Positions 3,921 to 51,049 of a stretch of 64,000 nt of DNA are shown piece by piece; the stretch's first letter is position 1, and every line of letters begins with the position of its first letter. The notes under the pieces were generated by a model. It searched no databases, had not been told where the DNA came from, and was given only the letters and a program-made list of their open reading frames with translations. A program made the position numbers and the translations under genes. Origin of the DNA: Isurus oxyrinchus (taxonomy: Eukaryota); NCBI GenBank assembly GCA_026770705.1, contig JANJGN010000026.1:23932001-23996000 (forward strand). Reading direction: 5' to 3'.

Positions 3921-6138
3921 ACAACAAAAACAGAATTACCTGGAAAAACTCAGCAGGTCTGGCAGCATTGGCGGAGAAAAAAAAAGTTGACGTTTTGAGT
4001 CCTCATAACCCTTCGACAGAACTAGGTGAATCCCAGGAAGGGTTGAAATATAAGCTGGTTTAAGGTGGGTGGGGGGGGGGGGTGTGGGTTTGGAGGGGGG
4101 GGGGGGGGTGGGGAGGGAGAAGTGGAGGGGGGTGGTGTAGTTGTAGGCAAAAGCAGTGATAGAAGCAGATCATCAAAAGATGTCACAGACGGCAGAACAA
4201 AAGAACACATAGGTGTCGTATTTGGTGATATTATCTAAATGAATGTGCTAATTAAGAATGGATGGTAGGGCACTCAAGGTGTAGCTCAAGTGGGGGTGGG
4301 GGGAGGATAAAAGATTTAAAAATATTTAAGAATAATGGAAATAGGAGGGAAAAAGAAAAATCTATATAATTTATTGGAAAAAACAAAAGGAAGGGGGAAG
4401 AAACAGAAAGGGGGTGGGGATGGAGGAGGGAGGTCACGACCTAAAGTTGTTGAATTCAATATTCAGTCCAGAAGGCTGTAAAGTGCCTAGTCGGAAGATG
4501 AGGTGTTATTCCTCCAGTTTGCGTTGGGCTTCACTGGAACAATGCAGCAAGCCAAGGACAGACATGTGGGCAAGAGATCAGTGTGGAGTGTTGAAATGGC
4601 AAGCGGTAGGGAGGTTTGGGTCATTCTTGCGGACAGACCGCAGGTGTTCTGCAAAGCGGTCGCCCAGTTTACATTTGGTCTCTCCAATGTAGAGAAGACT
4701 GCATTGGGAGCAACGAATGCAGTAGACCAAGTTGGGGGAAATGCAAGTGAAATGTTGCTTCACTTGAAAGGAGTGTTTGGGCCCTTGGATGGTGAGGAGA
4801 GAGGAAGTACAGGGGCAGGTGTTACATCTTTTGCGTGGGCATGGGGTGGTGCCATAGGTGGGGGTTGAGGAGTAGGGGGTGATGGAGGAGTGGACCAGGG
4901 TGGACAGGGCCCTCAACCGTGTCCGGCCCATCTCCTGCACATCCGCCCTCATGCCTTCTCCTCCCTCCCAGAAACATGATAGGGTCCCCCTTGTCCTCAT
5001 TTATCACCCCACCAGCCTCCGCATTCAAAGGATCATCCTCTGCCATTTCCGCCAACTCCAGCATGATGCCACTACCAAGCACATCTTCCCTTCACCCCTA
5101 CTGTCGGCATTCTGTAGGGATCGTTCCCTACAGGACACACTGGTTCACTCCTCCATCACCCACTACTCCTCAAACCCCTCCTATGGCACCACCCCATGCC
5201 CACGCAAAAGATGTAACACCTACCTCTTCACTTCCTCTCTCCTCACCGTCCAAGTGCCCAAACACTCCTTTCAAGTGAAGCAACATTTCACTTGCATTTC
5301 CCCCAACTTGGTCTACTGCATTCGTTGCTCCCAATGCAGTCTCCTCTACATTGGAGAGACCAAATGTAAACTGGGCGACCGCTTTGCAGAACACCTGCGG
5401 TCTGTCCGCAAGAATGACCCAAACCTCCCTGCTGCTTGCCATTTCAAAACTCCACCCTGCTCTCTTGCCCACATATCTGTCCTTGGCTTGCTGCATTGTT
5501 CCAGTGAAGCCCAATGCAAACTGGAGGAACAACACCTCATCTTCCGACTAGGCACTTTACAGCCTTCCGGACTGAATATTGAATTCAACAACTTTAGGTA
5601 TTGACCTCCCTCCTCCATCCCCACCCCCCTTCTGTTTCTTCCCCCTTCCTTTTGTTTTTTTTCCAATAAATTATATAGATTTTTCTTTTTCCCTCCTATT
5701 TCCATTATTTTTAAATATTTTAAAATCTTTTATGCTCCCCCCACCCCCACTAGAGCTGTACCTTGAGTGCCCGACCATCCATTCTTAATTAGCACATTCG
5801 TTTGGATAATATCACCAACTACGACACCTATGTGTTCTTTTGTTCTGCCGTCTGTGACATCTTTTGATGATCTGTTTCTATCACTGCTTTTGCCTACAAC
5901 CACACAACCCCCTCCACTTCTCTCTCCCTCTCCCCCCACCCCCCACCTCTCGCCCCCCATCTTAAACCAGCTTATATTTCAACCCTTCCTGGGATTCACC
6001 TAGTTCTGTCGAAGGGTCATGAGGACTCGAAACGTCAACTCTTTTCTTCTCCGCGGATGCTGCCAGACCTGCTGAGTTTTTCCAAGTAATTCTGTTTTTG
6101 TTTTGGATTTCCAGCATCGGCAGTTTTTAGTTTTTGTT
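3921..6138. mobile_element. Penelope-like element, 5'-truncated, inverted (palindromic) arrangement with TSD
   Basis: GIY-YIG endonuclease (NLVYCIRCSQCSLLYIGETKCKLGDRFAEH) on both strands; arm 3921-4902 (-) mirrors about 5137-6105 (+); 14-bp TSD TTTGGTTATGGTTC at 3907-3920 and 6139-6152. Confidence 0.92.
6002..6040 (+). ncRNA. Minimal type I hammerhead ribozyme motif in Penelope pLTR (variant core)
   Basis: AGTT-CTGTCGA-A-GGGTC(atgag)GACTC-GAAA-CGTC-AACT: stem I AGTT/AACT, stem II hairpin, GAAA, ACGT palindrome, GUC site; core has U at A6. Confidence 0.6.
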
Positions 6139-6212
6139 TTTGGTTATGGTTCGTTTGGCAGCAAAATGATTAGTTCCGTGGACGGAAGCGCTTTTGTAGT
6201 TACACAGGGTCA

Positions 6213-6226
6213 CCACCAGAGGTCAG
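6213..6226 (+). promoter_or_regulatory. CTCF-like motif
   Basis: CCACCAGAGGTCAG, 13/14 core match, about 1 kb upstream of the + strand V at 7198. Confidence 0.4.
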
Positions 6227-7197
6227 GCAGAGGCTTTGCTCACTCGTTATGAAGGTGTCAGCCGAGTTGCATTTGACAAGATAATTTAGTGAATGTCCCA
6301 TTTTATTCCTGGAAGATTGGCAATAAATCAACAATTTCGAAAGTAGAGGCATTCATTTGAAGCCATGCTATATTTTACAATATCAAAGCACGACTAATAT
6401 CAATGCCTCACCAATATTTTAATAAGCCTCTCATCCAAGAACAGTTGACTCCATCTGCTGATCGCACCCTTTCATTCTTCTCAAGCCTTCCAGTCAGTTC
6501 CCATTGCTTTCCTCCAAATGGAAGATTTCGGCATGTTGATAGCAAACTGTGTTAAGATCCGCCAAGATCCGCCCCACCTACATAACCCTCTTTGATATCG
6601 TCTGAGGCTCCGTCCCTTGTAACATCACAGATAGAAGAATTAGTTGAATCACCAAAGGGGAGGGTGAATTTGGCAATTCAAAGAGTATAGCCAATCCTAA
6701 TTCTTTCCCGGACATCTTTATCTGGGCCCCACTAAACTAACGTTAAACGCGTCCTTTGTGATTAAATTGTTGGGGGTGGTGGGGGGGGGGGGGGTTGCTG
6801 GTGAGGTGGGGTGGGGAGTGGGAAAGGAAATCGTTTACAATGCTTCTCGAAATACTAGCGTGGGGCGCCAATTCTGTTGTTGCAGCACACGATTCCTCCT
6901 GTTCCCTGATGATGTGGCACTGTGAAAAGCGGACATGACATGGCTGTAGAATCACAACCCTTTCTATCTCTGTCATAGGTTTAATGTTACAGCGCAGGGA
7001 CTTGCAGGAGGGTCAAACAGAAAGCTCACCACCAGCTTCTCAGGGGTAATTAGGGATGGGCATAAAATGCTGACCGAGCTAGCGACGCTCACATCCCACG
7101 AAAGACTAGTAAATTAAAAATACGCCAGCACGTTACTGGCGACAGTTTGTCCCCGGCGAGAAGGTCTAGATTCTGACATTGTGACCCGCAGCCGGCG

Positions 7198-7677
7198 ATG
7201 GGTTTTGCTGCTTATTCCAGCGTGGCTTTGGCCCTATCTGTGCTGTGTAAGTTCATGCGGTATCCATGTATGAATATCATTAATTGATGCACCTAGTGAG
7301 ACGGCTATTTTCAATCGCCCAATTTATCTTGCAGCCCCCACGGCGTTGGCGCCGATTTTGTGCAAATAGACAATTCGATCAGAACGGTGTGGGAAGGAAA
7401 ATCGGTGATGCTGAATTGCAGTTTTCCAACAATCGATGCAACCCTTTACCTTAAGTGGTACCGGCAGATTCCCGGACATGCACCGGTGAACCTCTTGGAT
7501 ATTAGTCCATATGGCACCGTCCCAGCCAACTTCGCCCCGGAGCGTTTTCCATCACGGCTGGGCAGAGAGCGCTGATTGGCTGAGAATATCTCGGGCGGAG
7601 CTGTCAGATGGAGCTCTGTATCACTGTGCTCTGAGAGACAGAGCTGCACAGCTGCGCGCCTGCCCCGTACAAAAACA
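7198..7677 (+). pseudogene. TCR alpha/delta-type V pseudogene (leader + V exon + decayed RSS)
   Basis: Leader MGFAAYSSVALALSVL 7198-7246 with GTAAGT donor; acceptor 7333-7334; ...EGKSVMLNCSF...LKWYRQIPGHAP...LRISRAELSDGALYHCALR; frameshifts at exon start and near 7560; nonamer ACAAAAACA 7669-7677, heptamer degenerate. Confidence 0.88.
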
Positions 7678-7819
7678 GCAGCACAGAATCTCACTAGAAC
7701 AATGTGTGACTGCTCCATCCGCCCTCTTGAAAGTTCGAATAGGGCGAGTAACCGGAGACAACAATTTAATTTCCCATTGGCTCAGGGCAGAGCCCCCAGA
7801 TTTCAGACTTCTGCCTCTC

Positions 7820-8330
7820 AAATCAATTAGAGATCAATCTGCCTCTGAGGTCAATTAACGATCAAGCTATCTGTCAGGTCAATTAGAGATCAAACAGTCT
7901 CTGAGGTTAATTAGAGATCAAACTGTCTCTCGGAGCAATTAGAGATCAAACTGTCTCTCAGATTAATTAGAGAGCAAACTGTCTCGAATCAGTTAGAGAT
8001 CAAACTGTCCCTACGATCAATTAGAGATCACACTGTTTCTTAAAGCAGTTAGAGATCAAACTGCCTCTCAGATCAATTGGAGATCAATCGGTCTTGAGGT
8101 CAATTAGAGGTCAAGCTGTCTCTCAGGTCAATTGGAGATCAATCTGTCCCCCAAGGCAATTAGAGATCAAACTGTCTCTCTGATTGCTTAGGGAACGAAC
8201 TGCCTCCAAGATTAATTAGAGATCCAACTGTCTCTCAGATTAATTTGAAATCAACAGCCTCTCAGAACAACTGGAGTTGAATTTGTTTCCCAGATCTATG
8301 GGAGATTCAACTGTCTGCATATAGATACCA
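7820..8330. repeat. 28-bp tandem minisatellite (roughly 18 degenerate copies)
   Basis: Unit approximately AATTAGAGATCAAACTGTCTCTCAGGTC; successive copies start at 7881 and 7909. Confidence 0.9.
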
Positions 8331-8455
8331 TTGTCTCTTATCAGTGGGATGCGATGTTAATCTTTATATTCCCTTAAATAAAAACGCACCTGTTGTTAAG
8401 GAAGGTCAGAGCAGTCAGAGTCAAAGCACGGAACTCTATGTGATATCCAGCATGA

Positions 8456-8554
8456 AGTGACATCAGACCAGATCCAACTCCTTCCGCTCCGATTTTCTTC
8501 AGGACGTGACATCAAACCAGTCCAGTCTGAGTCGTCCTGAAGGAGGTGACATCC
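8456..8554 (+). promoter_or_regulatory. V promoter with triplicated TCR decamer/CRE-like motif
   Basis: AGTGACATCA 8456-8465, CGTGACATCA 8505-8514, GGTGACATCC 8545-8554, 75-170 bp upstream of the leader ATG at 8628. Confidence 0.65.
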
Positions 8555-8627
8555 GCTCTCCTTTTGTTGGTTATTCTGCAGGTCTCTGAGATACAAAATC
8601 TCTCTCTTCAATTCCGGAGCAACAGCA

Positions 8628-9621
8628 ATGCGGCTTCCCCTTCTCGCTGTGGCCTGGATAACATTCAGTGTCGGTATGAAGATTAAAACATTTTTTTAAA
8701 CTGAATTGTTTCCAGAAGAATAAATTTCAAGTGCAAATACATTCTTGTAATTTTGTAGCGGAAAGTGGTTAGACCGGACTTGGAGTGTTAGGAAAATTAT
8801 ATAAGGGCAACGGAGGAAGTGGAAAAACCGATTTATAAGGATGATAGTAGAATTGAGGAAAAATAACTTTCAGAAATCATTGTCCAAGCTCGGGCTCTTC
8901 TCTCTCGCAACGCGAGGTCTGAGGAACAACCTGACAGAGGTCGTTAACAATGTTGAAGCTGTTTCATATGTTAGTCGTTCAGAGGATTTTTTCACTTCTG
9001 GGCGATTTAAGAACGATAAATATAAAGAAGGGAACTGATGAGAAACTGAACTACCCACAGAGTGTTTGTAATCTGGAAATCAATTTCACAAGGAGGGAAG
9101 AGGTGAATAATCTGGATTGATTTAAGGAGAAGCCAAATGAAAGGATTATAAAGAAAGGGGTTGAAGGGCATTCTGATGGAGTGAAATAAAGAGAGGTAGG
9201 GGATGCCATCGCCGTGTAAAACGGTGAAATCCATTGTGTTGAATGCAATCGTATTCTCGGCTCTAAGTGCTGTCTAATTTAATGGAACACTGATTACGAT
9301 TTACTCTGACATTCCAGGCCTGAGCGATGGAGATTCTGTTATTCAGTGGGAACCTTCGCTGACACAGACAGAGGGAAAAGATGCCACTTTAACATGCACC
9401 TATACCGGCGATAGCTTTTTCTTATTCTGGTACCGGCAGTACACAGGCAGACAGCCCGAGTTTGCAGTCCAGAGGTACACTGACGGCGACCTGGATTATC
9501 AGGCAGATTTCGCTCGGAACCGGTTTTCTGATATAGTCCATAAGTCAGACAAATCGTACCGATTGACCATCTCGGAGCTGTGGCTGTCTGACACCGCGGT
9601 CTATTACTGTGCACTGAGTCT
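8628..9621 (+). CDS. Intact TCR alpha/delta-type V gene segment (leader 8628-8673, V exon 9318-9621)
   Basis: Spliced product MRLPLLAVAWITFSVGLSDGDSVIQWEPSLTQTEGKDATLTCTYTGDSFFLFWYRQYTGRQPEFAVQRYTDGDLDYQADFARNRFSDIVHKSDKSYRLTISELWLSDTAVYYCALS; GT/AG phase-1 intron; no stops; both Cys and Trp conserved; absent from the ORF track because the V exon has no ATG. Confidence 0.95.
8760..9250 (+). mobile_element. Old CR1 3' fragment inside the V intron
   Basis: LSKLGLFSLATRGLRNNLTEV, a degenerate CR1 C-terminal motif. Confidence 0.7.
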
Positions 9622-9660
9622 CACAGTGATGGATCCGAGTTGAGCCCTCGTACAATAACT
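9622..9660 (+). other. 23-RSS of the intact V
   Basis: CACAGTG (9622-9628) + 23 nt + ACAATAACT (9652-9660). Confidence 0.95.
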
Positions 9661-10199
9661 GCTGCAGGTTTCTGGGTCACAGCTGTTGTCTGTTGAGGGC
9701 TGTTTATAACTGCAGGTCAGACACTGACACACGAATCCATTCCTCTGAGAGTGGGCCCCGAGCACAATCCACACAAACATCATCTAAAACTGTTCCCTGT
9801 AACCACTGGTTCCGCCTTATTTACATTAACGATGTGAAGGCAAAACTGGTAAAACAAATTCCAGCCACGTTACTGGAACTAGTCCTGCCAGTTTACTGCT
9901 GTTTCAGAGACAGCTCATGGCAATCAGAAAAGCAATAATTGGTTTAAAATATCAGTCTGCTATATAGACAGATGCACGGCAGGTGGAGAAGATTGTAATC
10001 ATTACATGAATTTGATTAAATATTCCTCAATGTTCAAAACACCTGGACCCTGATATCATGACACTGGCCTTCCCTCAGATATTAGTGCACTAAAGTAACC
10101 TGTGCATGGATTACACAGCTCCAGGCTTTTACATACATCATGCTTATTGGTTTATATTCCGCTCTCCAAATCTTACATTTTTGCAGTGATGCAAAACTT

Positions 10200-10565
10200 G
10201 GATATGGGCTTCGCTGGCTGGGCCAGCATTCATTGCCCATCAGAAGGTGGTGGTTTGCTGCCTTCTTGAACCGCTGCAGTCCATGTGGTGTAGGTACACC
10301 CATAGTGCTGTTCGGGTTTTGTAGCGGTTTGATACAGCTGAGCGACTCATTATGCCATTTAGAGTCAAGCACATTGCTGTGGGTTTGGAATCACATGTAA
10401 AGGTCACAAAGGACATTAGTGAACTAGTTGGGGTTTTACAGCATTCGTCATCAGATTTCGAGATTTAAGATTTTTATTGAATTCAAATTCAAACTTATGT
10501 GCTGTGTTTCAAAACATGAATCCCTGAATTACTCACCTCGCGACAATACCACTACGCCATCACCA
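10200..10565 (-). mobile_element. SINE with L2-like tail
   Basis: Reverse complement of the tail at 2810-2985; body resembles 18990-19345. Confidence 0.6.
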
Positions 10566-10949: not shown

Positions 10950-11400
10950 TAAAAGCAAAATACCACGTATGCTGTAAATTTGACACTAAACAGGAAATGC
11001 TGGAAAAACTCAGCAGATCTGGCAGCATATGTGGGGAGAGAAACAGAGTTAACGTTGTGTGTCCGTGTGACCCTTCTGCAGAGGGACATTGACTGGGTCA
11101 TCCTGTCATTCAATTGCTTACAATCCCCCACTTTTTTTTAGTTGAACCTTCCCTTTGTTTTTCTGCTTTCTCCCTATGTTTTTTATACCTCTATTAATTG
11201 CATATCTGGTGTAATGTTTGCAGTTTTATTCCTCTTAGAAATGGTAGGGTACACTTTCCCAAGTTAGAACACAACAACTATTCCCTAAACTGGTAAAGGC
11301 TCTGAAAAAGAGTCATATGGACTCGAAACGTTAACTCTGCCTTTCTCTCCACAGATGCTGTCAGACCTGCCGGATTTTTCCAGCACGTTTTGCTTTTGTT
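10950..11400. mobile_element. Inverted pair of short Penelope pLTR copies
   Basis: 10950-11085 (gctggaaaaactcagcag...) and its reverse complement at 11297-11400, which contains ctgaaaaagagtcatatggactcgaaacgttaac. Confidence 0.7.
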
Positions 11401-11404
11401 CCCA

Positions 11405-11850: not shown

Positions 11851-11869
11851 ACACGCTAGCTACTACACA

Positions 11870-15059: not shown

Positions 15060-15372
15060 ATGCATATATTCAGCGCCTGGATTGTGTTCGGCGTGTTTCT
15101 TGTCGGCAAGGGTGGATCCAATCTGATGAAATGTTATCTCGATCTGAAACCTTATCGCTCTTCTCTCCAGGGATGCTTCGTGACCTGCTTAGTATTTCGA
15201 GCTTTTGTGCTTTTATTCCATGGGTCCAATCATTTCGGGTAAAATACAAAGTGTTAATATTATGTCAGCAATATGTTTAACACTAAGTTTTGTCTCCTTC
15301 ATGAACACGTGTTACAGATCCAAGTGATGGAGATTCTGTTATTCAGCCGCAGGCGTCTGAGAACGGGAGAGA
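15060..15372 (+). pseudogene. Truncated V pseudogene (leader + first ~18 codons of V), paralog of the 8628 V
   Basis: Leader MHIFSAWIVFGVFLV 15060-15105 with GC donor; acceptor 15316-15317; DPSDGDSVIQPQASENGRE; shares gatggagattctgttattcag with the 9318 exon; cut by a Penelope pLTR at about 15370. Confidence 0.8.
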
Positions 15373-15740
15373 GCTATACATTGAGTGCCCTACCATCCAT
15401 TCTTAATTAGTACATTCGTTTAGATAATATCACCAACTTTAACTTTAACACCTATGTGTTCTATTGTACCATTGTCGTTGACATCTTTTGATGATCTGCT
15501 TTTATCACTGCTTGTTTGTCCATACAACCACACCCCCAACCCCCCACCCCCCAACCTCTCTCTCTCTCTCTATCTCTCCGCCCCCCACACACACACCTTA
15601 AACCAGCTTATATTTCAACTTTTTCTTGGACTCGAACTCAAGTTCTGTCCAAGGGTCATGAGGACTCGAAACATCAACTCTTTTCTTCTCCGCCGATGCT
15701 GCCAGACCTGCTGAGTTTTTCCAGGTAATTCTGTTTTTAT
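15370..15740 (+). mobile_element. Penelope pLTR fragment
   Basis: Near-identical to 5752-6100; degenerate hammerhead motif at 15641-15679. Confidence 0.88.
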
Positions 15741-15759
15741 TTATATAGCTAGTCGAGTT

Positions 15760-18604: not shown

Positions 18605-18740
18605 ATAAAAACAAAATACTGCAGATGCTGGAAATCTAGAACAAAAACAAAAATATCCGGAAAAACTCAGCAGGTCTGACAGTATGTGCGGAGAGGGATA
18701 CATTTGACGTTTCGACTCCGTATGACCCTTCATCAGAACT
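18605..18740 (-). mobile_element. Short Penelope pLTR copy
   Basis: aaatactgcagatgctggaaatc...aaactcagcaggtctgacag; sits in the intron position of the 18.3-kb V pseudogene. Confidence 0.8.
18702..18740 (-). ncRNA. Minimal type I hammerhead ribozyme motif with canonical core
   Basis: AGTT-CTGATGA-A-GGGTC(atacg)GAGTC-GAAA-CGTC-AAAT; canonical CUGAUGA/GAAA/GUC, one mismatch each in stems I and II. Confidence 0.65.
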
Positions 18741-18989
18741 TAAAAGAAATCAATATAATGATACATACAAGGAAAATTGAACAAAGTGCTTGTGGAAATG
18801 GGTAGAATAATGTAATCAATCCACCTATCCAGCCTGGGCCCACCTGAGTTAACAGTTCTGTAAGAACCGCCCATAATTATCAGCTGGAGGAACTGGATTT
18901 TGAGAGCTTTAATTAACTCTGTTGGCAAATCGATATTCCGGGTAAGTTCGGAGCTAGTTACGCTATAAATGGCAGCATGGAGATAAGTT

Positions 18990-19345: not shown

Positions 19346-19513
19346 ATTTTCCTCTCCAAAACTGATTCTCTGTGGATTTGGGCATGGACAAAGAGAGCAA
19401 TAAAACTGCGATAAATAGATCTGTCCGTTTTGCTTCTCCGAAGCCCAGGGTGAAACTGTTCCCGTCGACAAAAGCACAAAAGAAAGCTTATCGGAACTCC
19501 AAATACTCTCTCA

Positions 19514-19552
19514 GGTTTTTGTACGGGGTTCTAGCTGTGATCTAACGCTGTG
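19514..19552 (-). other. 23-RSS of the intact V
   Basis: CACAGCG + 23 nt + perfect ACAAAAACC on the minus strand. Confidence 0.95.
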
Positions 19553-20081
19553 CCTCATTGCACAGTGATACACCGCCTCGTCCTCCACACTCAGTTCGCT
19601 TATATTGAGGTGACCGTTCTTTTTGGACTGGTCAGCAGCAGCCAGGTATCGTCCTGAAATTTCATTTTGCTTCAGTGCTAAGATATTGGTAATAATCCAT
19701 CTTGGTGGCTGTGCTGCCTGCTGCTGGTACCATTGCATGTAGTCCATATTCGGATCTGTATATTCACAGTCTAACTGCATCGAACCCCCTTCTGACACCG
19801 TTATTGCGACTGGGGACTGAGTTACTGGATCTGCGCATCGTCCGCCTGTGAGGTAGAGGAATGAAATATCAAGCGGTTAAACAGTATTGATCTAAATTTG
19901 TTTGTAGCTGTGTGAGTTTGCGGAACCTCCTATCTAACAAGCTGTCCGTCATATTGGTATTCCTGATCGTTAATTGTATTAAATACTATCGCAATCTCTG
20001 TACATTAATCTGCTAATCAGCCTTGATTGACATAATTCAGTACTTACTGTGCAGCAGCGCCGCTAGTATTATCAGCAACAT
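19553..20081 (-). CDS. Intact TCR alpha/delta-type V gene segment (leader 20081-20048, V exon 19845-19553)
   Basis: Spliced product MLLIILAALLHSGRCADPVTQSPVAITVSEGGSMQLDCEYTDPNMDYMQWYQQQAAQPPRWIITNILALKQNEISGRYLAAADQSKKNGHLNISELSVEDEAVYHCAMR; GTAAGT/CACAG phase-1 intron; in frame. Confidence 0.94.
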
Positions 20082-20444: not shown

Positions 20445-22480
20445 AGAACCGTAGAACCATAGAACACTACAGCACAGAAAACAGGCCATTCGGCCCTTCT
20501 AGTCTGTGCCGAAATATTATTCCGCTAGTCCCATTGACCTGCACCCAGTCCATAACCCTCCAGACCTCTCCCATCCATGTATCCATCCAATTTATTCCCA
20601 AAACTTAAGAGTGAGCTCGCATTTACCACGTCAGATGGTAGCTAGTTCCACACTCCCACCACTCTCTGAGTGAAGAAGTTCACCTTAATGTTCCCCCTAA
20701 ACCTTTCCTCTTTCACCCTAAAGCCATGTCCTCTCGTGTTTATCTGTCCTAATCTAAGTGGAAAGAGCCTACTCGCATTTACTCTGTCTATACTCCTCAT
20801 AATTTTGTAAACTTCTGTCAAATCTCCCCTCATTCTTCTACACACCAAGGAATAAAGTCCTAACCTGTTTAATCTTTCCCTGTAACTCAACTCCTGAAGA
20901 CCCGGCAACATCCTAGTAAATCTTCTCTGCACTCTTTCAATCTTACTGATATCCTTCCTGTAGTTAGGCGACCAGAACTGCACACAATACTCCAAAGTTG
21001 GCCTCACCAATGTCTTATAAAACCTCACCAAAACATCCCAACTCCTATACACAATACTTTGATTTATGAGGGCCAGTATACCAAAAGCTTTCTTTACAAC
21101 CCTGTCTACCTGTGACGCCACTTTCAGGGAATTATGTATCTGAACTCCCAGATCCCTTTGTTCCTCCGCACTCCTCAGTGCCCTACCATTTACTGTGTAT
21201 GTCCTACCTTGGTTTGTCCTTCCAAAATGCAACACCTTACACTTTTCTGCATTAAATTCCATCTGCCATTTTCTGGCCCATTTTTCCAGTTGGTCCAGAT
21301 CCCTCTGCAAGCTTTGAAAGCCTTCCTCACTGTCCACAACGACTCCAATCTTAGTGTCATCAGCAAACTTGCTGATCCAATTTACCACATTATCATCCAG
21401 ATCATTGATATAGACAACAAACAACAATGGTCCCAGTACAGATCCCTGAGGCACACCACTAGTGACAAGCCTCCAGTCTGAGAAGCAATCATCCACTACC
21501 ACTCTCTGTCTTCTCCCACACAGCCAATTTCGAATCCAGTTTACAACCTCTCCATGGAAACCAACTGTCTGAACCTTCTGAACTAACCTCCCTTGTGGGA
21601 CCTTGTCAAAGGCCTTACTAAAGTCCATGTAGACAACATCCACTGCCTTTCCTTCATCTACTTTCTTGGTAACCTCCTTGAAAAACTCTACAAGGGTCGG
21701 TAACACGACCTACCACGCACAACGCCATGCTGATGATCCTTAATCAGCCCTTGGCTGTCCAAATAATTGTATATCCGATCTCTCCGAACACCTTCCAATA
21801 ATTTACCTACTACAGACGTCAGACTTACTGGCCTGTAATTACCTGGTTTACTTTTGGAGCCTTTTTTCAAACAACAGAACAACATGAGCTACCCTCCAAT
21901 CTTCCGGCACCTCACCCAAGGCTAAGGACATTTTAAATATTTCTGCCAGGGCCCCTGCAATTTCTACACTAGTCTCCCTCAAGGCCCGAGGAAATATCAT
22001 GTCAGGTCCGGGGGATTTATCTACCTTTATTCGCTGTAAGGCAGCAAGTGCCACCTCGTCTTTAATCTCTATATGTTCCATGACACTACTGTTTGTTTCC
22101 CTTCCTTATACACTATGCCAGTTTCCTGAGTGAATACTGATGCAAAAGAATTGTTTAAGATCTCCCCCATCTCGTGAGGCTCCACACATAGACGACCAGT
22201 CTGATCTGCAAAGGGACAAATTGTGTCCCGTACTAGCCTTTTACTCTTAATATACTTGTAGAAACCCTTCGGGTTTACCTTCACATTAACTGCCAAAGCA
22301 ACCTCATGTCTTCTTTTTGCCTTCCTGATTTCCTTCTTTAGTATTTTCTTACATTTTCTACACTCTACAAGTACCTCATTTGCTCCTTGTTGCCTATACC
22401 TGCTATATACCTCTCTCTCTTCTTCTTAAACACATCACCAATATCCCTTGAACACCAAGGTTCCCTATGCCTGTTAACTT
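20445..22480 (-). mobile_element. CR1 LINE, 5'-truncated (RT domain), few disablements
   Basis: [48 protein letters not shown]; short-repeat 3' tail at about 20445-20465. Confidence 0.95.
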
Positions 22481-22499
22481 TATGATGTTAAATCTGTGG

Positions 22500-24581
22500 A
22501 AATCATCGCTGGAGTTCTCTATCCATAAAAAGAAGAAGCATACCAAAGGGAGGATGAGGCAACCATGGCTGACAAGGGAAGTCAGGGACAGTATAAAAGC
22601 TAAAGAGAAAGCATACAATGTGGCGAAGAGCAGTGGGAAACCAGGGGATTGAGAGGCCTACAAAGACCAAGAGAGGACAACTAAAAAAGAAATAAGGAGG
22701 GAGAAGATTAACTATGAGGGGTAACTAGCCAGTAATATAAAAGAAGATTGCAAGAGTTTTTTTTAACATATATAAAATGTAAGAGAGAGGTAAAAGTGGA
22801 CACTGGGCCGCTGGAAAATGACGCTGGAGAAGTAGTAGTGGGGAACAAAGAAATGGTGGAGGAACTGAATAGGTACTTTGCATCAGTCTTCACAATGGAA
22901 GACACGAGTGACATCCCCAAAGTTCAAGAGAGTCGGGGGGCAGAGGTGAGTATTGTGGCCATTACCAAGGAGAAGCTGCGAGGAAAATTGAAAGGTCTGA
23001 AGGTGGATAAATCACCTGGACCAGATGGAGTGCACCCCAGAGTTCTGAAAGAGATCACTGAAGAGATATTGGAGGCGTTAGTGGCGATCTTTCAGGAATC
23101 ACTGGAGTCAGGGAGGGTCCCAGAGGACTGGAAAATCGCTAACGTAAGCCCCCTGTTTAAGAAGGGAGTGAGGCAAAAGACTGGAAATTACAGGCCGTTT
23201 AGCCTGACCTCGGTTGTTGGTAAGAGTTCAGAGTCCATTATTAAGGATGAGATTTCAGAATACTTGGAAGTTCATGGTAAAATCGGACAAAGTCAGCATG
23301 GTTTCATCAAGGGGAGGTCATGCCTGACAAATCTGTTAGAATTCTTTGAGGAGGTAACGAGTAGGTTAGACAAAGGAGAGCCAATGGATGTTATCTACTT
23401 GGACTTCCAGAAGGCCTTTGACAAGGTGCCGCTCAGGAGGCTGCTCAGTAAGGTAAGAGCCCATGGTGTTAGAGACAAGGTACTAGCATGGATAGAATAT
23501 TGGCTGTCTGGCAGGAGGCAGAGAGTGGGGATAAGGGGGTCCTTCTCAGGATGGCGGCCAGTACCTAGTGGAGTTCCACAGGGGTCAGTGTTGGGACCAC
23601 AACTTTTCACTTTATACATTAATGATCTAGATGAAGGAAGTGAGGGCATCCTGGCTACGTTTGCAGATGATACAAAGATAGGTGGAGGGACAGGTAGTAT
23701 TGAGGAGGCGGGGAGGCTGTAGAAGGATTTGGACAGGTCAGGAGAATGGGTAAAGAAGTGGCAGATGGAATACAACGTGGGGAAGTGTGAGGTCATGCAC
23801 TTTGGTAGGAAGAATAGAGGCATAGACTATTTTCTAAATGGGGAGGGAATTCAGAATTCTGGAGTGCAAAGGGACTTGGGAGTCCTAGTCCAGGATTCTC
23901 TTAAGGTTAACTTGCAGGTTGAGTCGGTAGTTAGGAAGGCAAATGCAATGTTGGCATTTATTTCGAGAGGACTAGAATATAAAAGCAGGGATGTGCTGCT
24001 GAGGCTTTATAAGGCTCTGGTCAGACCACGTTTAGAATATTGTGAGCAATTTTGGGCCCCGTATCTGAAGAAGGATGTTCTGGCCCTGGAGAGGGTCCAG
24101 AGGAGGTTCATGAGAATGATCCCAGGAATGAAAGGCTTAACATATGAAGAACGTTTGAGGACTCTGGGTCTAAACTCGATAGAGTTTAGAAGGATGAGGA
24201 GGGATCTGATTGAAACTTACAGAATACTGAAAGGCCTGGATAGAGTGGACGTGAGGAAGATGTTTCCATTAGTGGGAGAGACTAGGACCCAAGGGCACAG
24301 CCTCAGAGTAAAGGGAAGACCTTTTAGAACAGAGATGAGGAGAAACTTCTTTAGCCAGAGAGTGATGAATCTATGGAATTCATTGCCACAGAAGGCTGTG
24401 GAGACCAGGTCATTGAGTGTATTTAAGACCGAGATATATAGGTTCTTGATTGGTAAGGGGATCAAAGGTTATGGGGAGAAGATGGGAGAATGGGGTTGAG
24501 AAACTTATCAGACATGATTGAATGGTGGAGCAGACTCGATGGGCCGAATGGCCTAATTTCTGCTCCTATGTCTTATGGCCT
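22500..24581 (+). mobile_element. CR1 LINE, 5'-truncated (RT domain), different subfamily
   Basis: ORFs 22748-23722 and 23729-24499 are separated by one stop; [27 protein letters not shown]; 3' tail ctcctatgtcttatgg. Confidence 0.95.
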
Positions 24582-27808: not shown

Positions 27809-27899
27809 CGACTCTGGTGGGATTCGAACCCACAGCCTTTGAATACCTTAGCTATGAAAGACTAGAAGTCCAACGCGCTGTCCATTGCGCCACAGAGCC
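27809..27899 (-). tRNA. tRNA-Arg-TCT: tRNA-Arg(TCT) with 18-nt intron (27862-27845)
   Basis: GGCTCTGTGGCGCAATGGACAGCGCGTTGGACTTCTA-gtctttcatagctaaggt-ATTCAAAGGCTGTGGGTTCGAATCCCACCAGAGTCG; 73-nt mature sequence, intact A/B boxes, TTTT terminator just downstream. Confidence 0.95.
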
Positions 27900-31239: not shown

Positions 31240-32350
31240 AGGTCCTCTCTCAGTTTTTACAGCACGAGACAAAGCCTCCAATCAAAAGCAAAATACTGCG
31301 GATGCTAGAACTCTGAAATGAGGACAGAAAATGCTGGAAAAACTCTGACAGCATCTGTGGAGAGAGAAACCCAGTTAACGTTTCGAGTCCGGAGAGTTTC
31401 GAGACCTGCAGACTTTTCCCACTATTTTCTGTCTTTAATTATTACTAAAGCCTCCGATTATTTCAGAACAGGCCATGTTTCTGGTAATATTGCACTAAGT
31501 CCTCTGGTATTACAGCACGAGACTAGCCTCTACTTATATCACGCTGGGCCGGGCCTCATTCACTACTGCAGTAGATTATAGCTCTGTTCAAGTTACATCC
31601 TGCCTTTGTTAGTTATCAACTAAGAACTGTCTCTTTGCAGATTATTCCATGCTTTGTCTCAGTTATTATTACTGGATGCTCCCTCCGTCCATTTTACCCA
31701 AAGCCTTTGTCTCACCTCATAACACGCTAGATCACGTTTCTGTTGATATTACATGATAATATGATGCTGTTTTATTTCTACAGACCGTGTCTTAGTTTTG
31801 TATTGCACTCGGTCCTCGTTCGGTTATTACAACATTTGATGACATATCAGTGCATATTTCACTGGACACCGCCTCTGGCCTCTTTGCACGAGCTTCTGTC
31901 TCATTTCCTTCAGCTCTAGAACATGTGTCTATGTAAATTCAGATAGGCCCCCTCTAAGTTATTGCTGCGCTCGACCATGTCTCTGTGTGCATGAGAGGAG
32001 AACCGGCGTCAATTATTACTGCAGTTGAACATATACCTGTTGACTTTACAGTAGGCCAGGCCTTAGATATTAATGCGTTAAATTATGCTTCAGCCATATT
32101 ACACTAGTGGCTAATTCAGTTACTCGTGCAATCGGCCATCTTTATGTTAAAGAAGACGCTGTTCTGGTTTATATTACGCGAGAACATGACTCTTCGTATG
32201 TTACTCTTGGCCCTGTATTCGTTATTATTTGACTGGATCAAGCTAGTCTTTATAATACTCGAAAACCTGCCTAGTTACTGATATACTAGAATCTATCGCT
32301 GTTCATACTACACAAGATCCCATCTCTGCTTATGTTATACTGGATGTTGA
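31240..32350 (+). repeat. Degenerate 27/54-bp minisatellite array, with an inserted pLTR pair at about 31283-31435
   Basis: Alternating ACTAGACCCTGTCTCAGTTATTACTGC / ACTAGACCCTGTCTCTGTTTATATTAC-like units. Confidence 0.65.
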
Positions 32351-32980: not shown

Positions 32981-33884
32981 TATCATTGCAGTGTCTGTCT
33001 GTGATAAACATGTTCAAATGTCTGTAATGTTCATTGATTGTATGGAAGCACCTCATCTTTGTGGAAAACTGGAATATGATTGCACTTTTTGTGATGGCCA
33101 TTTTGAAATGTTTCGAAATGTTCTTTCAGATATTTTATGAATGAAGTATCTTTTCCCAAAAAAAAAAGAACCCGCTTCCTCTCAACTGGCTTTGGAAACG
33201 TTTACAACGAGTCGTCTCTCGAGGTCAGTACCAGTTTGCGGCATAAAAACAGAAAATTCTGGACATACTCGGCAGGCCGGGAAGCATCGGCGCACAGCGA
33301 ATCACAGTGAAAGTTTCATGTCCGCGACATTTCACCTGAGCTCAGTCTGAGGAGTTGCTGGTTTCTGGTGAAAGGTCACAGACTAGAACCTCCACTCTGT
33401 TTCTGGTTGTATTTCCAGCATTTTTTGTTTGTCTTTCGAATTTGGTTAACTTTCTGCGGGCGAGACACAAGAGGGGAGGGGGTAACATCACCCGCAGGAC
33501 AATCGCAGGCGCATTCTTTGAGATAACTACAGCTTGGGACGAGAGTAAATATGCCCACATTGCGGACACTTCAGTTTCTTTAAGAATCATCACACAACGG
33601 TACAAAATAAACACTCAGGATCTCTCTCGGTCCCCTGGGACACAATCAGACAATGAAGCTCCCCCACGTAGCAAAGACCGCACTGACTAACTGCCCCCTC
33701 AGTCCGACACTCTGCCGTGACCGTCAGTATCTCGGATGAAAGATCCTCTTATTAGCATTTACTAGACAACCCGCGGCAGCCCTGTCCGTCCCTCCCGTTA
33801 GCTGTTCATGCTCCGAGCCGCCTGGCCCGCCTTGTGCTATCTGAGAGATTGCTGCCGATCTCCCGGAACTGTAACCAGGAGCGA

Positions 33885-40208: not shown

Positions 40209-40236
40209 CTGCAGGAAATATTTCATGGTTAACCAT

Positions 40237-40392: not shown

Positions 40393-40394
40393 AA

Positions 40395-40487
40395 AAATTG
40401 AAAATGCTGGAAAAACTCAGCAGGTCTGACAGCATCTGTGGAGAGAGAAACAGTTAACGTTTCGAGTCTGTATGACTATTCTTCAGA
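40395..40487 (-). mobile_element. Short Penelope pLTR with hammerhead-like core
   Basis: Minus strand CTGAAGA-A-TAGTC(ataca)GACTC-GAAA-CGTT-AAC at 40452-40486. Confidence 0.7.
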
Positions 40488-44939: not shown

Positions 44940-46230
44940 ATAAATTAAGCCAGCATAGATCCGTTAAGGGCAAATCATGTTTAACTAACTTGTTTGAGTT
45001 TTTTGATGACATAGCAGCGATGGTTGATGAGGGTAATGCTTTTGATGTGGTTTACATGGTCTCTGAAAGGCATTTAATGAAGTGCCGCACAACAGACCTG
45101 TGAGCAAAGTTGGAGCTCACTGGAATAAAATGGACGGTAACATCATGGATTGGGAGCTGGCTGAGTGCCAGGAAACAAAGAGTAGTTTTGAACCGTTGTT
45201 TTTCGGACTCGGGGAAGGATTATAATGAAGTCCCCAAGAGTCAGTGCTAGGACACCTACTTTTCATAATATTTATTCATATACTGGGCCTTGGTGTACAG
45301 GGCACAATTTCAAAATATGCGGACGATGTGAAATGTGGAAGCATTGTGGGCCATGAGGAGGATAGTGTAGAACTTCAAAAAGACATCGAGAGGTTGGTGG
45401 AAAGGACGGACAAGTGACAGTTGAAATGTAATGCAGAGAAGGCAAGAAGTGGTTCATTTTGGTAGGGAGAACGCAGAGAGACAATATAAAAGAAAGGGTA
45501 TGATTCCAAAGGGGCTGCAGGAGCCGACTAACCTGAGCGTATATGTATATAAATTATTGAAGGTGGCAGGACAAGTGGAAAGAGCGTGGTTAATAAAGCA
45601 TGCAGCATCCTGAGCTTTATTAATAGAGGAAAAGTGTTTAAAAGCAAAGAGGTTATGTTAAACGTGTGTGACACATTTCTTAGGCATCAACTGGAGAATT
45701 GCATCCAATTGCGGGCACCACACCTTTGGAAGAATTTGATGGCATGAGAGAGGGCACAGGAAAGATTCATGGAAATTGTTTCAGGGATGAAGAACTCCAG
45801 TTATGCATAAAAAGTGGAGCAGTTGACTTTAATCTCGTTTGAGGAGAGAAATTTTAGAGGAGATTTGATACAGGTATTAAAAATCACGAAGGGTCTGGGC
45901 AGAGTAGGTAGGGTAAAGTTGTTCCCATTGGTGGAAGGATTGAGAACCTGGTGGCTCAGGATTAAAGTAATCTGGAGAAGAAGCAATGGACACAAGAGGA
46001 AAACAATTTCACGCAGTGAGTTGTTAGGATCTGGAATGCCCTGCCTGAGAGTGTGGTGGATTGAGGGACAAATTGATGCTTTCAGAACGAAACTGGATCC
46101 TTATCTGAAAAGAAAAAAAATGCTGGACGATAAAGAAAGCTGTGGCGCAAGGTCAATTACCCCTTCAGAGGGTTAGCACAGACAAGAGTGGCCGAATGGC
46201 ATCCTCCTGTTCTGTAAAAATTCTATGATT
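44940..46230 (+). mobile_element. Degenerate CR1 ORF2
   Basis: aagggcaaatcatgtttaactaacttg (KGKSCLTNL), HFGREN, FEERNFRGDLIQV. Confidence 0.8.
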
Positions 46231-46300
46231 CTATCACTAATGTCGGAAGCAGCAACTAAAATTGACATTTTCACATTTGCAATAGTAGAGTCTGTCCAGT

Positions 46301-49300
46301 CGATAAAAACAAAAAACTGCGGATGCTGGAAATCCAAAACAAAAACAGAATTACCTGGGAAAACTCAGCAGGTCTGGCAGCATCGGCGGAGAAGAAAAGA
46401 GTTGACGTTTCGAGTCCTCCTGACCCTTCAACAGAACTAGGTGAATCCAAGGAAGGGTGAAATATAAGCTGGTTTAAGGTGTGTGTGTAGGGGGGGCGGG
46501 GGGGGGGGAGGGTGCGGGGTTGGGTGGGGGGAGAGAAGTGGAGGGGGGTGTGGTTGTAGTGACAAACAAGCAGTGATAGAAGCAGATCATCAAAAGATGT
46601 CACAGACAACAGAACAAAAGAACACATAGGTGTTGAAGTTGGTGATACATATCTAAACGAATATGCTAATTAAGAATGGATGGTAGGGCACTCAAGGTAT
46701 AGCTCTAGTGGGGGTGGGGGGAGCATAAAAGACTTAAAAATATTTTAAAATAATGGAAATAGGTGTGAAAAGAAATATCTATATAATTTATTGGAAAAAA
46801 CAAAAGGAAGGGGGAAGAAACAGAAAGGGGTTGACGATGGAGGATGGAGTTCAGGACTTAAAGTAGTTGAATTCAGTATTCAGTCTGGAAGGCTGTAAAG
46901 TGCCTAACTGGAAGATGAGGTGTTGTTCCTCCACTTTGAGTTGGGCTTCACTGGAACAATGCAGCAAGCCAAGGACAGACATGTGGGCAAGACAGCAGGG
47001 TGCAGTGTTAAAATGGCAAGCGACAGGGAGGTTTGGGTCATTCTTGTGGACAGACCAAAGGTGTTCTGCAAAGTGGTCGCCCAGTTTACGTTTGGTCTCT
47101 CCAATTAAGAGGAGACCACATTGGGAGCAATGAATACCATAGACTAAGTTGGGGGAAATGCAAGTGAAATGCTGCTTCACTTGAAAGGAGTGTTTGGGCC
47201 CTTGGACGGTGAGGAGAGAGGAAGTGAAGGGGCAGGTGTTACATCTTTTGCGTGGGCATGGGGTGGTGCCATAGGTGGGGGCTGAGGAATAGGTGGTGAT
47301 GGAGGAGTGGACCAGGGTGTCCCGGAGGGAACGATCCCTACGGAATGCCAACAGGGGATGAAGGGAAGATATGTTTCGTGGTGGCATCATGCTGGAGTTG
47401 GCGGAAATGGCGGAGGATGATCCTTTGAATGCGGAGGCTGGTGGGGTGATAAGTGAGGACAAGGGGGACCCTATCATGTTTCTGGGAGGGAGGAGAAGGC
47501 GTGAGGGCGGATGCGCGGGAGATGGGCCGGACACGGTTGAGGGCCCTGTCAACAACCGTGGGTGGCAAGTTCGGTTAAGGAAGAAGGAGGACATGTCAGA
47601 GGAACTGTTTTTGAAGGTAGCATCATTGGAACAGATGTGACGGAGGTGAAGGAACTGAGAGAATGGGATGGAGTCCTTACAGGAAGCGGGGTGTGAGGAA
47701 CTGTAGCCAAGGTAGCTGTGGGAGTCGGTAGGCTTGTAATGGATATTGGTGGACAGTCTATCACCAGAGATTGAGACAGAGAGGTCAAGGAGGGGAAGGG
47801 AAGTGTCAGAGATGGACCACAGGAAAATGATGGAGGGGTGGAGATTGGAAGCAAAATTAATTAAATTTTTCCAAGTCCCGACGAGAGCATGAAGCAGCAC
47901 CGAAGTAATCAACGATATACCGGAGAAAGAGTTGTGAGAGGGGGCCGGAGTAGGACTGGAACAAAGAATGTTCTACATACCCCATAAAGAGACAGGCATA
48001 GCTGGGGCCCATGCGGGTACCCATAGCCACACCTTTTATTTGGAGGAAGTGAGAGGAGTTGAAGGAGAAATTGTTTAGTGTGAGAACAAGTTCAGTCAGA
48101 TGGAGGAGAGTAGTGGTGGATGGGGATTGTTTGGGCCTCTGTTCGAGGAAGAAGCTAAGGGCCCTCAGACCATCCTGGTGGGGAATGGAGGTGTAGAGGG
48201 ATTGGACGTCCATGGTGAAGAGGAGGCGGTTGGGGCCAAGGAACTGGAAATTGTTCTTGTGACGTAAGATGTCACGGGAATCACGGATGTAGGTGGGAAG
48301 GGACTGGACAAGGGGAGAGAGAAGGGAGTCAAATAACGAGAAATGAGTTCTGTGGGGCAGGAGCAAGCTGACACGATCGGTCTACTGGGACAGTTCTGTT
48401 TGTCGATTTTGGGTAGGAGGTAGAAGTGGGCCGTCCGAGGTTGGGCGCCTATCGGGTTGGAAGCTGTGGGAGGAAGATCCCCAGAGGAGGTGAGGTCAGT
48501 GACAGTCCTGGAAACAATGGCTTGATGTTCAGTGGTGGGTCATGGTCCAGGGAGATGTAGGAGGAAGTGTCTGTGAATTGACGAGCCTCTGCGAGGTAGA
48601 GGTCAGTGCGCCAGACAACAACAGCACCACCCTTGTCAGCGGGTTTGATGACAATGTCAGGGTTGGACCTGAGAGAATGGAGTGCAGTAAGTTCAGAGAG
48701 AGAGAGATTAGAATGGGTGAGAGGAGCAGAGAAATTGAGACGACTAACGTCGCGCTGACAGTTCTCAATTAAAAGGTCAAGAGAAGGTAAGAATCCAAAG
48801 GGAGGGGTGGGGGTGGAGGGAGAATATTGGAGGTGGGTGCAAGGATCCATTGAACGGGGAGAGGACTCCTGACCAAAGAAGTGAGCCCAGAGATGAAGAC
48901 GGTGGAAGAAGAGTTCAGCATCGTGCCGAGCCCGAAATTCATTAAGGTGAGGGCGTAGGGATATAAAACTAAGTCCTTTGCTGAGCACTGAACGTTCAGC
49001 ATCGGAGAGGGGAAGGTCAGGGGGTATAGTGAATACCCGGCTGGGGCTGGGATTGGAAGATGGGGTGGGGACGGAGGGACAGACAGGGGTGGATTGTCCT
49101 AGATGGGTGTTGGTGTCGATGAGTTGTTGGAGCTTGCGTTCCTTAGCACTTGAGAGAAAGAGAAAAAGTTTCTTGTTGAGGCGTCGGATGAGGCAAAGAA
49201 TAAAATGAAACTGGGGGCACGTGCAGCTTTGAAAAAGGGTACAGCAGTGCTGCTGGAGGAAGAGGTTGAGTGTGTTCATATGGCGGCGCATGGCACTGAG

Positions 49301-51033
49301 TGTGGATCTCAGAATGTGACTGGAACAGCAGTCCGAGAAACGTTTTATGTCCCAGAGATACCTGTAATCCTGGGTGGGTTCGAAATATGAGGGATGGAAT
49401 TTCAGTTGAAATCCACGTGGGGTAAGTCCGAGACGGAGACAGTCACTGAGAAAGGAGATATGGCTGTGAAAGCGGGTTTTAGTAAACACCTTGTCAAACA
49501 CCAGGAGAGAAATGGAAAGCAATGAAGGTGAGCAAGGCAAAAGAGAGATACGGAAATCTTGTCACAGAGACGAACAGAACTTCTTCAAGGAACGCATTTC
49601 TTGAAGAGCAGTGGCAGTCAATTAAACACAGAGATAAAAACAAAAAACTGCAGATGCTGGAAATCCAAAACAAAAACAGAATTACCTGGAAAAACTCAGC
49701 AGGTCTGGCAGCATCGGTGGAGAAGAAAGAGTTGACGTTTCGAGTCCTCATGACCCTTCAATAGAACTAGGTGAATCCAAGGAAGGGATGAAATATAAGC
49801 TGGTTTAAGGTGTGAGTGTAGGGGGGGTGGGGGGGGAGGGGTTGGGGGGAGGGAGAGAAGTGGAGGGGTGTGTGTGGTTGTAGGGACAAGCAAGAAGTGA
49901 TAGAAGCAGATCATCAAAAGATGTCATATGATAGGGTCCCCCTTGTCCTCACTTATCACCCCACCAGCCTCCGCATTCAAAGGATCATCCTCCACCATTT
50001 CCGCCAACTCCAGCATGATGCCACCACCAAACACATCTTCCCTTTACCCCCCCTGTCGGCATTCCTTAGGGATTGTTCCCTCCGGAACACCCTGGTCCAC
50101 TCCTCCATCACCACCTACTCCTCAACCCCCACCTATGGCACCACCCCATGCCCACGCAAAAGATGTAACACCTGCCCCTTCACTTCCTCTCTCCTCACCG
50201 TCCAAGGGCCCAAACACTCCTTTCAAGTGAAGCAGCATTTCACTTGCATTTCCCCCAACTTAGTCTACTGTATTCGTTGCCCCGAATGTGGTCTCTTCTA
50301 CATTGGAGAGACCAAACGTAAACTGGGCGACCGCTTTGCAGAACACCTTTGGTCTGTCCACAAGAATGACCCAAACCTCCCTGTCGCTTGCCATTTTAAC
50401 ACTGCACCCTGCTGTCTTGTCCACATGTCTGTCCTTGGCTTGCTGCATTGTTCCAGTGAAGCCCAACGCAAAGTGGAGGAACAACACCTCATCTTCCAAC
50501 TAGGCACTTTACAGCCTTCCAGACTGAATATTGAATTCAACTACTTTAGGTCCTGAACTCCATCCTCCATCCCCACCCCCTTTCTGTTTCTTCCCCCTTC
50601 TTTTTGTTTTTTCCAATAAATTATATATATATTTTTCTTTTCCCACCTATTTCCATTATTTTAAAATATTTTTAAATCTTTTATGCTCCCCCCACCCCCA
50701 CTAGAGCTATACCTTGAGTGCCCTACCATCCATTCTTAATTAGCACATTCGTTTAGATATATATCACCAACTTCAACACCTATGTGTTCTTTTGTCTGTG
50801 ACATCTTTTGATGATCTGCTTCTATCACTGCTTGCTTGTCCCTACAACCACACCCCCCTTCACTTCTCTCCCCACCCTCCCCCTACACACACACCTTAAA
50901 CCAGCTTATATTTCACCCCTTCCTTGGATTCACCTAGTTCTTGTGAAGCGTCATGAGGACTCGAAACGTCAACTCTTTTCTGCCGATGCTGCCAGACCTG
51001 CTGAGTTTTTCCAGGTAATTCTGTTTTTGTTTT
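46301..51033 (-). mobile_element. Near full-length Penelope-like retroelement with tandem pLTR and inverted 5' arm
   Basis: ORF about 49540-46851 in three frameshifted pieces: KPADKGGAVVV, TMDVQSLYTSIP, GVAMGTRMGPSYA, LRYIVD (degenerate YIDD), GIY-YIG; pLTRs about 46305-46850 and 49630-49926; inverted arm 49928-51033; 13-bp TSD GAGTCTGTCCAGT at 46288-46300 and 51034-51046. Confidence 0.95.
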
Positions 51034-51049
51034 GAGTCTGTCCAGTAAA

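Follow-up and report, generated by a model that had tools for sequence, protein, structure and literature searches.

Whether a hammerhead ribozyme can change an invariant base of its catalytic core and still serve the retrotransposon that carries it is a question raised by a 64,000-nucleotide stretch of the Isurus oxyrinchus genome (contig JANJGN010000026.1, positions 23,932,001 to 23,996,000; hereafter the window). An earlier note on this DNA had described nine hammerhead motifs in the pseudo-long terminal repeats (pLTRs) of Penelope-like elements (PLEs), with U at the normally invariant A6 in a young family flanked by target-site duplications, and proposed either a natural active core variant or a lineage that kept transposing after losing self-cleavage. 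In the U-turn of the hammerhead core, a hydrogen bond donated by U4 requires position 6 to be a purine. In the 4.98 Gb host genome, U6 was found to be fixed in every sampled subfamily after the switch, including those with intact open reading frames (ORFs), and new copies were found to be made from RNA uncut at the motif. Between the two proposals, the sequence points to a ribozyme that is strongly slowed yet still conserved. The reading we adopt, tentatively and with slightly less than even confidence, is that A6U arose early in the most prolific lineage, where self-cleavage was likely slowed sharply and the fold is likely still selected.

Minimal Hammerheads in a Penelope-like Element

All nine motifs were located (Table 1); the last occupies 50936-50974, and the one at 40452-40486 lacks the 5′ strand of stem I. 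Helices I and II around the core, an extra nucleotide after A9 and a palindromic remnant of helix III are present, with 94% of cells paired compared with 0-48% in slid controls. The extra nucleotide, an unpaired A between A9 and stem II in the window motifs, is usual in minimal hammerheads (min-HHRs; PMC4209133). A minimal-hammerhead descriptor with position 6 left free matched 32 times (29 U6, 3 A6) in 100 evenly spread 10-kb stretches of the genome and not once in three shuffles of them, and the reversed-pattern controls of the pattern searches were also zero; the window motifs are therefore not chance occurrences. Scanned more loosely, these stretches yielded 71 motifs, with T at position 6 in 47, A in 20, G in 3 and C in 1. 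The invariant core (C3 U4 G5 A6 N7 G8 A9 / G12 A13 A14 A15.1 / U16.1 H17) is intact in the older subfamilies and violated in the dominant lineage, where position 6 is U. Within the window, the three older copies retain A6, and two of the six U6-lineage copies (6002 and 46438) pass the strict descriptor, the other four having additional core damage. Anatomy and descriptor matches thus support the assignment to Penelope-type minimal type I hammerheads. Rfam gave no hammerhead family at E≤10 for any window copy and, because the A6 copies are also unmatched, this null has no power to separate A6 from U6.

The min-HHRs of metazoan PLE pLTRs (described by Cervera and De la Pena in 2014; PMC4209133) share with these motifs their presence in both pLTRs, the type I order, a short helix I, the extra nucleotide between 9 and 10.1, the G10.1-C11.1 pair, a palindromic 15.2-16.2 replacing helix III and a huge copy number. 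The core differs, being CUGUYGA here and CUGANGA there; in the available part of that paper, which defines the min-HHR and reports low dimer activity, U3-A8 covariation is the only core variant described. A descriptor requiring CUGANGA would miss 29 of the 32 intact motifs in the sampled stretches, and such searches can miss ~90% of intact motifs in a genome of this kind. What is unusual is the fixed core change with its preserved series of intermediates; the min-HHR motif and the Penelope class of elements were known.

Judged by sequence, the motifs are min-HHRs in the pLTR of a Neptune-type PLE, a label taken from the domain order and the linker between reverse transcriptase (RT) and endonuclease (EN). 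A protein search of the genome found many places with a 926-codon open frame. Twenty-two such frames from 20 fetched regions, some in tandem arrays, differ from their majority at 0-12 of 2,778 nt, and every motif found beside an intact frame of this length is U6. In the 918-aa protein at locus L157, RVT_1 was matched above its cut-off (E=7e-8) and GIY-YIG, at residues 821-855, just under the curated cut-off (E=9e-4). The CX2-5CxxC zinc-finger-like RT-EN linker that defines EN+ PLEs (PMC8557442) is present as CPRKRCNTC (CX4CX2C). The layout is that of pLTRs: motifs lie 3.33 kb apart around the ORFs, and tandem arrays and inverted 5′-truncated arms occur. Counted from where the motif starts, ~175 nt precede the first Met of the long ORF. 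The lineage did keep transposing after its core changed, as the intact-ORF copies, all U6, indicate, and the U6 family is apparently still active. The element PAc (Poseidon, Anolis carolinensis; PMC11167929) likewise has an ORF with RT and C-terminal GIY-YIG and a pLTR hammerhead upstream of the copy's 3′ end. Its ribozyme cleaves with protein help, however, and its ORF starts inside stem II, whereas the present element begins its ORF well beyond the motif and carries a linker of the Neptune/Nematis type.

U6 Is Fixed in the Sampled Subfamilies after the Switch

Exact 28-mers of the young stem II context number 85,234 with U6 and 171 with A6 genome-wide, the latter being for the most part dispersed singletons, and the flank of the window's family gives 5,431 U6 and 19 A6. 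The A6 exceptions that were fetched (all of the 19 and 30 of the 171) are spread over a number of subfamily flanks or lie where an inversion joins, the pattern expected from back-mutation; no hidden A6 subfamily with young stem II that might drive transposition was found among the 30. With the youngest flank and positions 1-22 free there were 29,251 matches (control 182), the first 100 listed being all U6. In contigs from sequencing runs of two organisms (two DNA-type and two RNA-type, the RNA label being a guess), compared under an 85% likeness filter, no non-U letter was present at 3% or more at position 6009. Decay of the CpG positions 6028 and 6033 amounted to 8-10% in the DNA-type runs and to no more than ~1% in the RNA-type runs; so far as the guessed label holds, this hints that the young copies are the transcribed ones. 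The whole-genome counts rule out U6 as a local or sampling accident, and the tabulation of position 6 by subfamily and age gives the young consensus as U6, not A6.

Older families keep A6, as had been proposed: the older stem II context has 1,257 exact A6 matches alongside 5,270 U6. When copies were grouped by flank, mean non-CpG divergence mostly fell along the A6-to-U6 series, from 6.5% in the A6 ancestor (n=29) through 5.0% in the first U6 subfamily, CUGUUGA (n=15), and 4.8% (n=7) and 3.8% (n=10) in the two that follow, to 3.0% (n=11) and 1.4% (n=38) in the window's families, 1.1% in the B subfamily (n=16), and 0.4% (n=12) and 0.9% (n=21) in the Y subfamily; these values are biased downwards, many copies having been retrieved by similarity, and the series leaves out 49 copies fetched for A6 in the young context and one group of two. 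The age order of the cores is A6, then CUGUUGA, then CUGUCGA, ending in near-identical intact-ORF elements, all U6. The window's family, described as young, does have U6 fixed but is middle-aged, B and Y being younger. Nor is a target-site duplication the mark of the U6 family: the A6 copy at 18608-18741 has one (13 bp, one mismatch), and a search at the U6 solo pLTR 15370-15742 found none.

The majority pLTRs of the A6 and first U6 subfamilies show few other differences, and the simplest reading would be that U6 arose once. CUGUUGA, judged from the series, is the ancestral U6 state; that it is mere CpG decay of CUGUCGA was ruled out, the oldest U6 subfamilies all being CUGUUGA (first 100 of 5,270 listed).

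The upstream flank also changes along the series. In successive subfamilies, the 15 nt 5′ of the motif (window 15626-15640; L157 1816-1830) begin as a run of pyrimidines with a terminal AG and become, stepwise, GGACTCGAAATCA, a repeat of the 3′ strand of stem II of the motif itself together with GAAA; this could reflect either templated copying in reverse transcription or selection for a competing stem. The upstream GGACUCGAAA copy was considered by hand as a second, permuted hammerhead and rejected, there being too few nucleotides for helices I and III. In older subfamilies the flank (window 18741-18760, D subfamily) resembles a 3′ splice acceptor ending at the stem I AG and also reads as an initiator; the acceptor-like sequence decays after the U6 switch. 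A splice acceptor of like kind has reportedly been described in D. virilis Penelope.

New Copies Are Made from Uncut RNA

Among 25 ORF 5′ ends in intact-ORF loci, 21 continue beyond the motif in the upstream direction, 4 end 111-137 nt downstream of where the motif begins and none lies at the cut. Copies that reach the ORF from the 3′ end span the 3′ motif, and their templates were therefore uncut there. None of 42 U6-tail copies in an unbiased sample starts at the cut, the 5′ ends being scattered from -14 to +32.

Junctions close to the cut were sought throughout the genome with a sequence pattern, which matched 1,521 times. The first 100 were read by hand and 7 dropped (indels or other subfamilies); of those left, 15 lay at the cut and another 15 three bases upstream of it, with 3-10 at each of the remaining ten positions. 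Forty of these 93 were fetched: at the cut, 11 were without microhomology, 1 had 1 nt and 3 came from a 4-nt stem I fold-back homology, and four nearby positions had 7, 1, 4 and 4 microhomology-free junctions (Poisson P ~0.025, with an assumed expectation of 5.5). The A6-type tail (80 matches, 20 fetched), which is also found on some U6 copies, gave 3-5 clean junctions at the cut and 2-3 at neighbours. For the oldest families, ~2 cut-site junctions were seen in the first 100 of 1,682 tail matches, a list consisting mostly of small deletions and another repeat. In about one-fifth of these 100, other upstream sequence replaces GAAAC; such copies perhaps represent another repeat family, without a hammerhead, that has captured the tail.

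These junctions bear on the view that the natural U6 core has full activity, with rescue by a dimer, the element's protein or another metal ion. The slight excess at the cut (11 without microhomology, against 1-7 at the four neighbours) speaks for it, as do the remaining core, kept through ~13% synonymous change, the protein-assisted PAc ribozyme (PMC11167929) and A6C cores that work well in Mn2+ (PMC7151607). Cut-site junctions nevertheless make up just ~0.3-0.5% of copies by estimate, and full-length copies derive from uncut RNA. Moreover, all single and double CUGA-turn mutants are low in activity apart from the C3-G8 swap, the one double mutant in which the U-turn was rescued (PMC9901934). 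Full activity is, in our judgment, very doubtful.

Published position-6 variants are slow as well. A natural A6C hammerhead has a kobs <0.1/min (PMC3088659), and an engineered A6C is >10,000-fold slower in Mg2+ than in Mn2+ at 0.3 mM, Mn2+ rescuing it (PMC7151607). The A6C hammerhead of phage Bcep176 (PMC3088659, PMC7151607) resembles the present case in being a natural position-6 substitution with the remaining core intact. Here, by contrast, the base is U, the motif is of the dimer-type minimal form in an animal retrotransposon with >85,000 copies, the A6-to-U6 subfamily series is kept, and the variant is known from sequence alone. No published description of a natural A6U was found at the level of listings and abstracts; Lünse et al., which lies outside that coverage, may list position-6 variants. 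The available portions of a retrozyme preprint (10.64898/2026.07.22.740005) and of PMC11014351 contain nothing bearing on position 6.

Suggested Constraint on the Motif and Its Possible Role

In the reading adopted here, A6U would lower the cleavage rate by one or more orders of magnitude. Reverse transcription would start ~100 nt downstream of the 3′ motif and would have to pass through it. A cut at that motif would detach the ORF from the priming tail, which lies downstream of it, and a slow ribozyme may therefore be harmless or helpful to transposition. In other PLEs a working hammerhead is dispensable: insertion by PAc in vitro tolerates hammerhead mutations (PMC11167929), and Naiads thrive with no hammerhead (PMC8557442). 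Low-level cleavage, probably dimer- or protein-assisted, or the fold itself, would still be retained.

Between the first U6 subfamily and Y, the 39-mer acquired U>C at N7 and at N17 (GUU to GUC), two substitutions in loop II and a stem II change from A-U to G-U. These fall on 4 of the 8 tolerant positions and on 1 of the 30 that make up core, stems and palindrome (Fisher p=0.004, with a split drawn from general hammerhead knowledge and applied after the data were seen), which suggests a constraint after A6U that need not be catalytic. In the first 100 listed Y copies, the sole amplified variant lies in loop II (8 of 100); eight other changes, read by hand, are singletons, three of them in the core. 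The 46 nt upstream differ at 11 (0.24). Preservation as coding sequence was rejected, the ATG in loop II opening only a short frame and being absent from the D subfamilies.

Several points weigh against a slowed ribozyme under selection. Besides the late choice of the split, the 39-mer as a whole changed at 5 of 39 positions, the same overall rate as the fourfold sites (25 of 188; 0.133), and by that yardstick the constraint is weak (P=0.08 for one change or none among the 30 positions; P=0.24 for none among the 10 of the core). The tail downstream is as conserved as the motif (8 of 60 nt differ), so a promoter or protein site could explain the conservation. Stem covariation, which the earlier note had made a touchstone, is absent in two-sided form within the U6 lineage, although one pair (3 cells) shows it once 4 oldest-family copies are added. 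The footprint at the cut, counted by hand and after the fact, does not exceed ~2-fold, with no clearer peak in A6-type tails, and the mutagenesis data come from other hammerhead scaffolds, without an A6U rate.

The equality of the 39-mer and fourfold rates, and the P of 0.24 for the core, are also what would be seen if A6U had killed an unneeded ribozyme and too little time had passed for further decay. The ribozyme of PAc is indeed dispensable in vitro, where insertion was unaffected by hammerhead mutants; that ribozyme needs protein (PMC11167929). Such a neutral relic is improbable, however, given the concentration of changes at tolerant positions: loop II changed repeatedly among U6 subfamilies and the upstream 46 nt diverged at 0.24, with stems and core unchanged. 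Naiad and most Chlamys PLEs (PMC8557442) resemble the present family in strong proliferation without a canonical hammerhead; they have an N-terminal endonuclease and, as far as that source describes, no canonical motif, whereas this family keeps the whole scaffold with one core change.

Predicted folding introduces a further alternative. In the bare 39-mer, forming the hammerhead is predicted to cost 2.1 kcal/mol with A6, 3.0 with U6/U7 and 2.1 with U6/C7; U6 and U7 pair with the GAAA strand in the predicted fold, and U7>C removes the mispairing that U6 created. With 40 nt upstream and 60 downstream included, the predicted cost becomes 3.8-5.4 in D, 8.1 in A, 8.0 in B and 4.8-6.0 in Y. In the A subfamily, the upstream CCCUUC is predicted to pair with GAAGGG. 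Masking of this kind would be relevant only if the flank is part of the transcript, for instance in the 3′ pLTR. Minimum-energy dimer cofolding gave no double-hammerhead fold for either 6002 (U6) or 18740 (A6) and is thus uninformative on the difference. Small PLE hammerheads cleaving as dimers have reportedly been described by Lünse et al. (RNA Biol.). A6U might be a selected dial-down, leaving a ribozyme that cuts slowly, or only when licensed by the element's protein or Mn2+, with U7>C and GUU>GUC as compensation and the upstream sequences masking the 3′ pLTR fold; we consider this unlikely. If true, a dated series of ribozyme alleles would link lower cleavage to a burst of >85,000 copies and give a handle on the purpose of PLE hammerheads, which is presented as an open question in PMC8557442 and PMC11167929.

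The same folding predictions are compatible with a dead ribozyme whose sequence is kept for another job, such as an internal promoter or a binding site for the element's protein: with flanks, both stems are predicted to pair at ≤0.02 in A, B and Y, against 0.13-0.45 for stem II in the D subfamilies. The near-inactivity of U-turn mutants (PMC9901934) and the equal conservation of the downstream tail agree with this. The internal promoter of D. virilis Penelope includes the downstream element RGACGTGY (PMC2377424), and in the older and A subfamilies ACGT can be read from the sequence 31-34 nt from an initiator-like TAGTT at the motif start. The match to RGACGTGY is only 5/8, however, and the scattered 5′ ends of the unbiased U6 sample show no fixed start. 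Nor would a DNA promoter lead one to expect changes that spare the two stems and the two strands of the core, or the GUU>GUC substitution at the cut. Loss of cleavage with retention for another role is therefore rated as a serious possibility, if a rather unlikely one.

Under the adopted reading of a slowed but selected motif, as under its rivals, the A6 ancestor and each intermediate are matched natural alleles in one genome, with which it could be tested whether cleavage helps, hinders or is irrelevant to transposition. Should U6 cleave, the natural core consensus widens; should it not, the family would clearly exemplify a retrotransposon that flourishes once its ribozyme has been disabled.

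Other Features of the Window

Table 1. Hammerhead motifs, insertions and neighbouring features, in window coordinates
Feature	Position	Strand	Remarks
Intact U6 minimal hammerhead	6002-6040	+	Core CUGUCGA; same 39-mer in intact-ORF elements
Stem I of this motif	6002-6005/6037-6040	+	AGUU/AACU
Core of this motif	6006-6012	+	CUGUCGA; U6 at 6009; extra unpaired A at 6013
Stem II of this motif	6014-6018/6024-6028	+	GGGUC/GACUC; 5-nt loop
3′ part of this motif	6029-6032 (GAAA)	+	Then CG, UC; ACGU palindrome; predicted cut after C 6036
U6 motif, decayed	3985-4023	-	CUGUCGA with G12>A and one stem II change; inverted arm, same insertion as 6002-6040
U6 motif	46400-46438	-	CUGUUGA; 3′ pLTR of near-full-length element
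U6 motif, G5 decayed	49730-49768	-	CUAUUGA; 5′ pLTR, ~150 nt upstream of ORF
U6-family motif, core decayed	50936-50974	+	CUUGUGA; inverted arm of 46301-51033 insertion
U6 motif, G8 decayed	15641-15679	+	CUGUCCA; solo pLTR 15370-15742, younger B subfamily
Canonical-core motif	18702-18740	-	CUGAUGA; heads short older insertion 18608-18741 with 13-bp target duplication
Older A6 motif, G8 decayed	11298-11336	+	CUGAAAA
Older A6 motif	40452-40486	-	CUGAAGA; 5′ stem I strand missing
Degenerate older-Penelope hammerhead-plus-tail remnant	11044-11082	-	Additional to the nine
Degenerate older-Penelope hammerhead-plus-tail remnant	~15125-15165	+	Additional to the nine
Degenerate older-Penelope hammerhead-plus-tail remnant	31360-31400	-	Additional to the nine
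Degenerate older-Penelope hammerhead-plus-tail remnant	33295-33340	-	Additional to the nine
Degenerate older-Penelope hammerhead-plus-tail remnant	54400-54450	-	Additional to the nine
Fold-back Penelope-like insertion	3921-6138	both	5′-truncated GIY-YIG end and pLTR on + (~4900-6138); inverted arm on - (3923-4902)
14-bp target duplication	3907-3920 and 6139-6152		Flanks 3921-6138
Fold-back insertion with near-full-length element	46301-51033	both	Element on - (46306-49926), with a frameshifted RT and GIY-YIG ORF in pieces (46851-49561); the + strand carries the inverted arm (49928-51032)
13-bp target duplication	46288-46300 and 51034-51046		Flanks 46301-51033
Reading frames like immunoglobulin-superfamily V segments	7490-7858, 9278-9643, 19511-19876
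tRNA gene, UCU anticodon (Arg)	27809-27899	-	Intron-sized insert
Fragments of another long interspersed element (LINE) RT family	20642-24499, 58856-62146
27-28-bp tandem repeats	7767-8282, 31457-32347, 51150-52057

Because V-segment-like frames are present, the window probably lies in an antigen-receptor locus; by their motifs these frames are apparently of T-cell receptor alpha/delta type. The fragments of the other LINE family are presumably CR1-like. In the Penelope-like element itself, a 7-bp inverted repeat (GATGCTG/CAGCATC) closes the tail 3′ of the motif (window 6056-6109); the majority line of every subfamily retains it, and it is a candidate protein-binding or priming structure.

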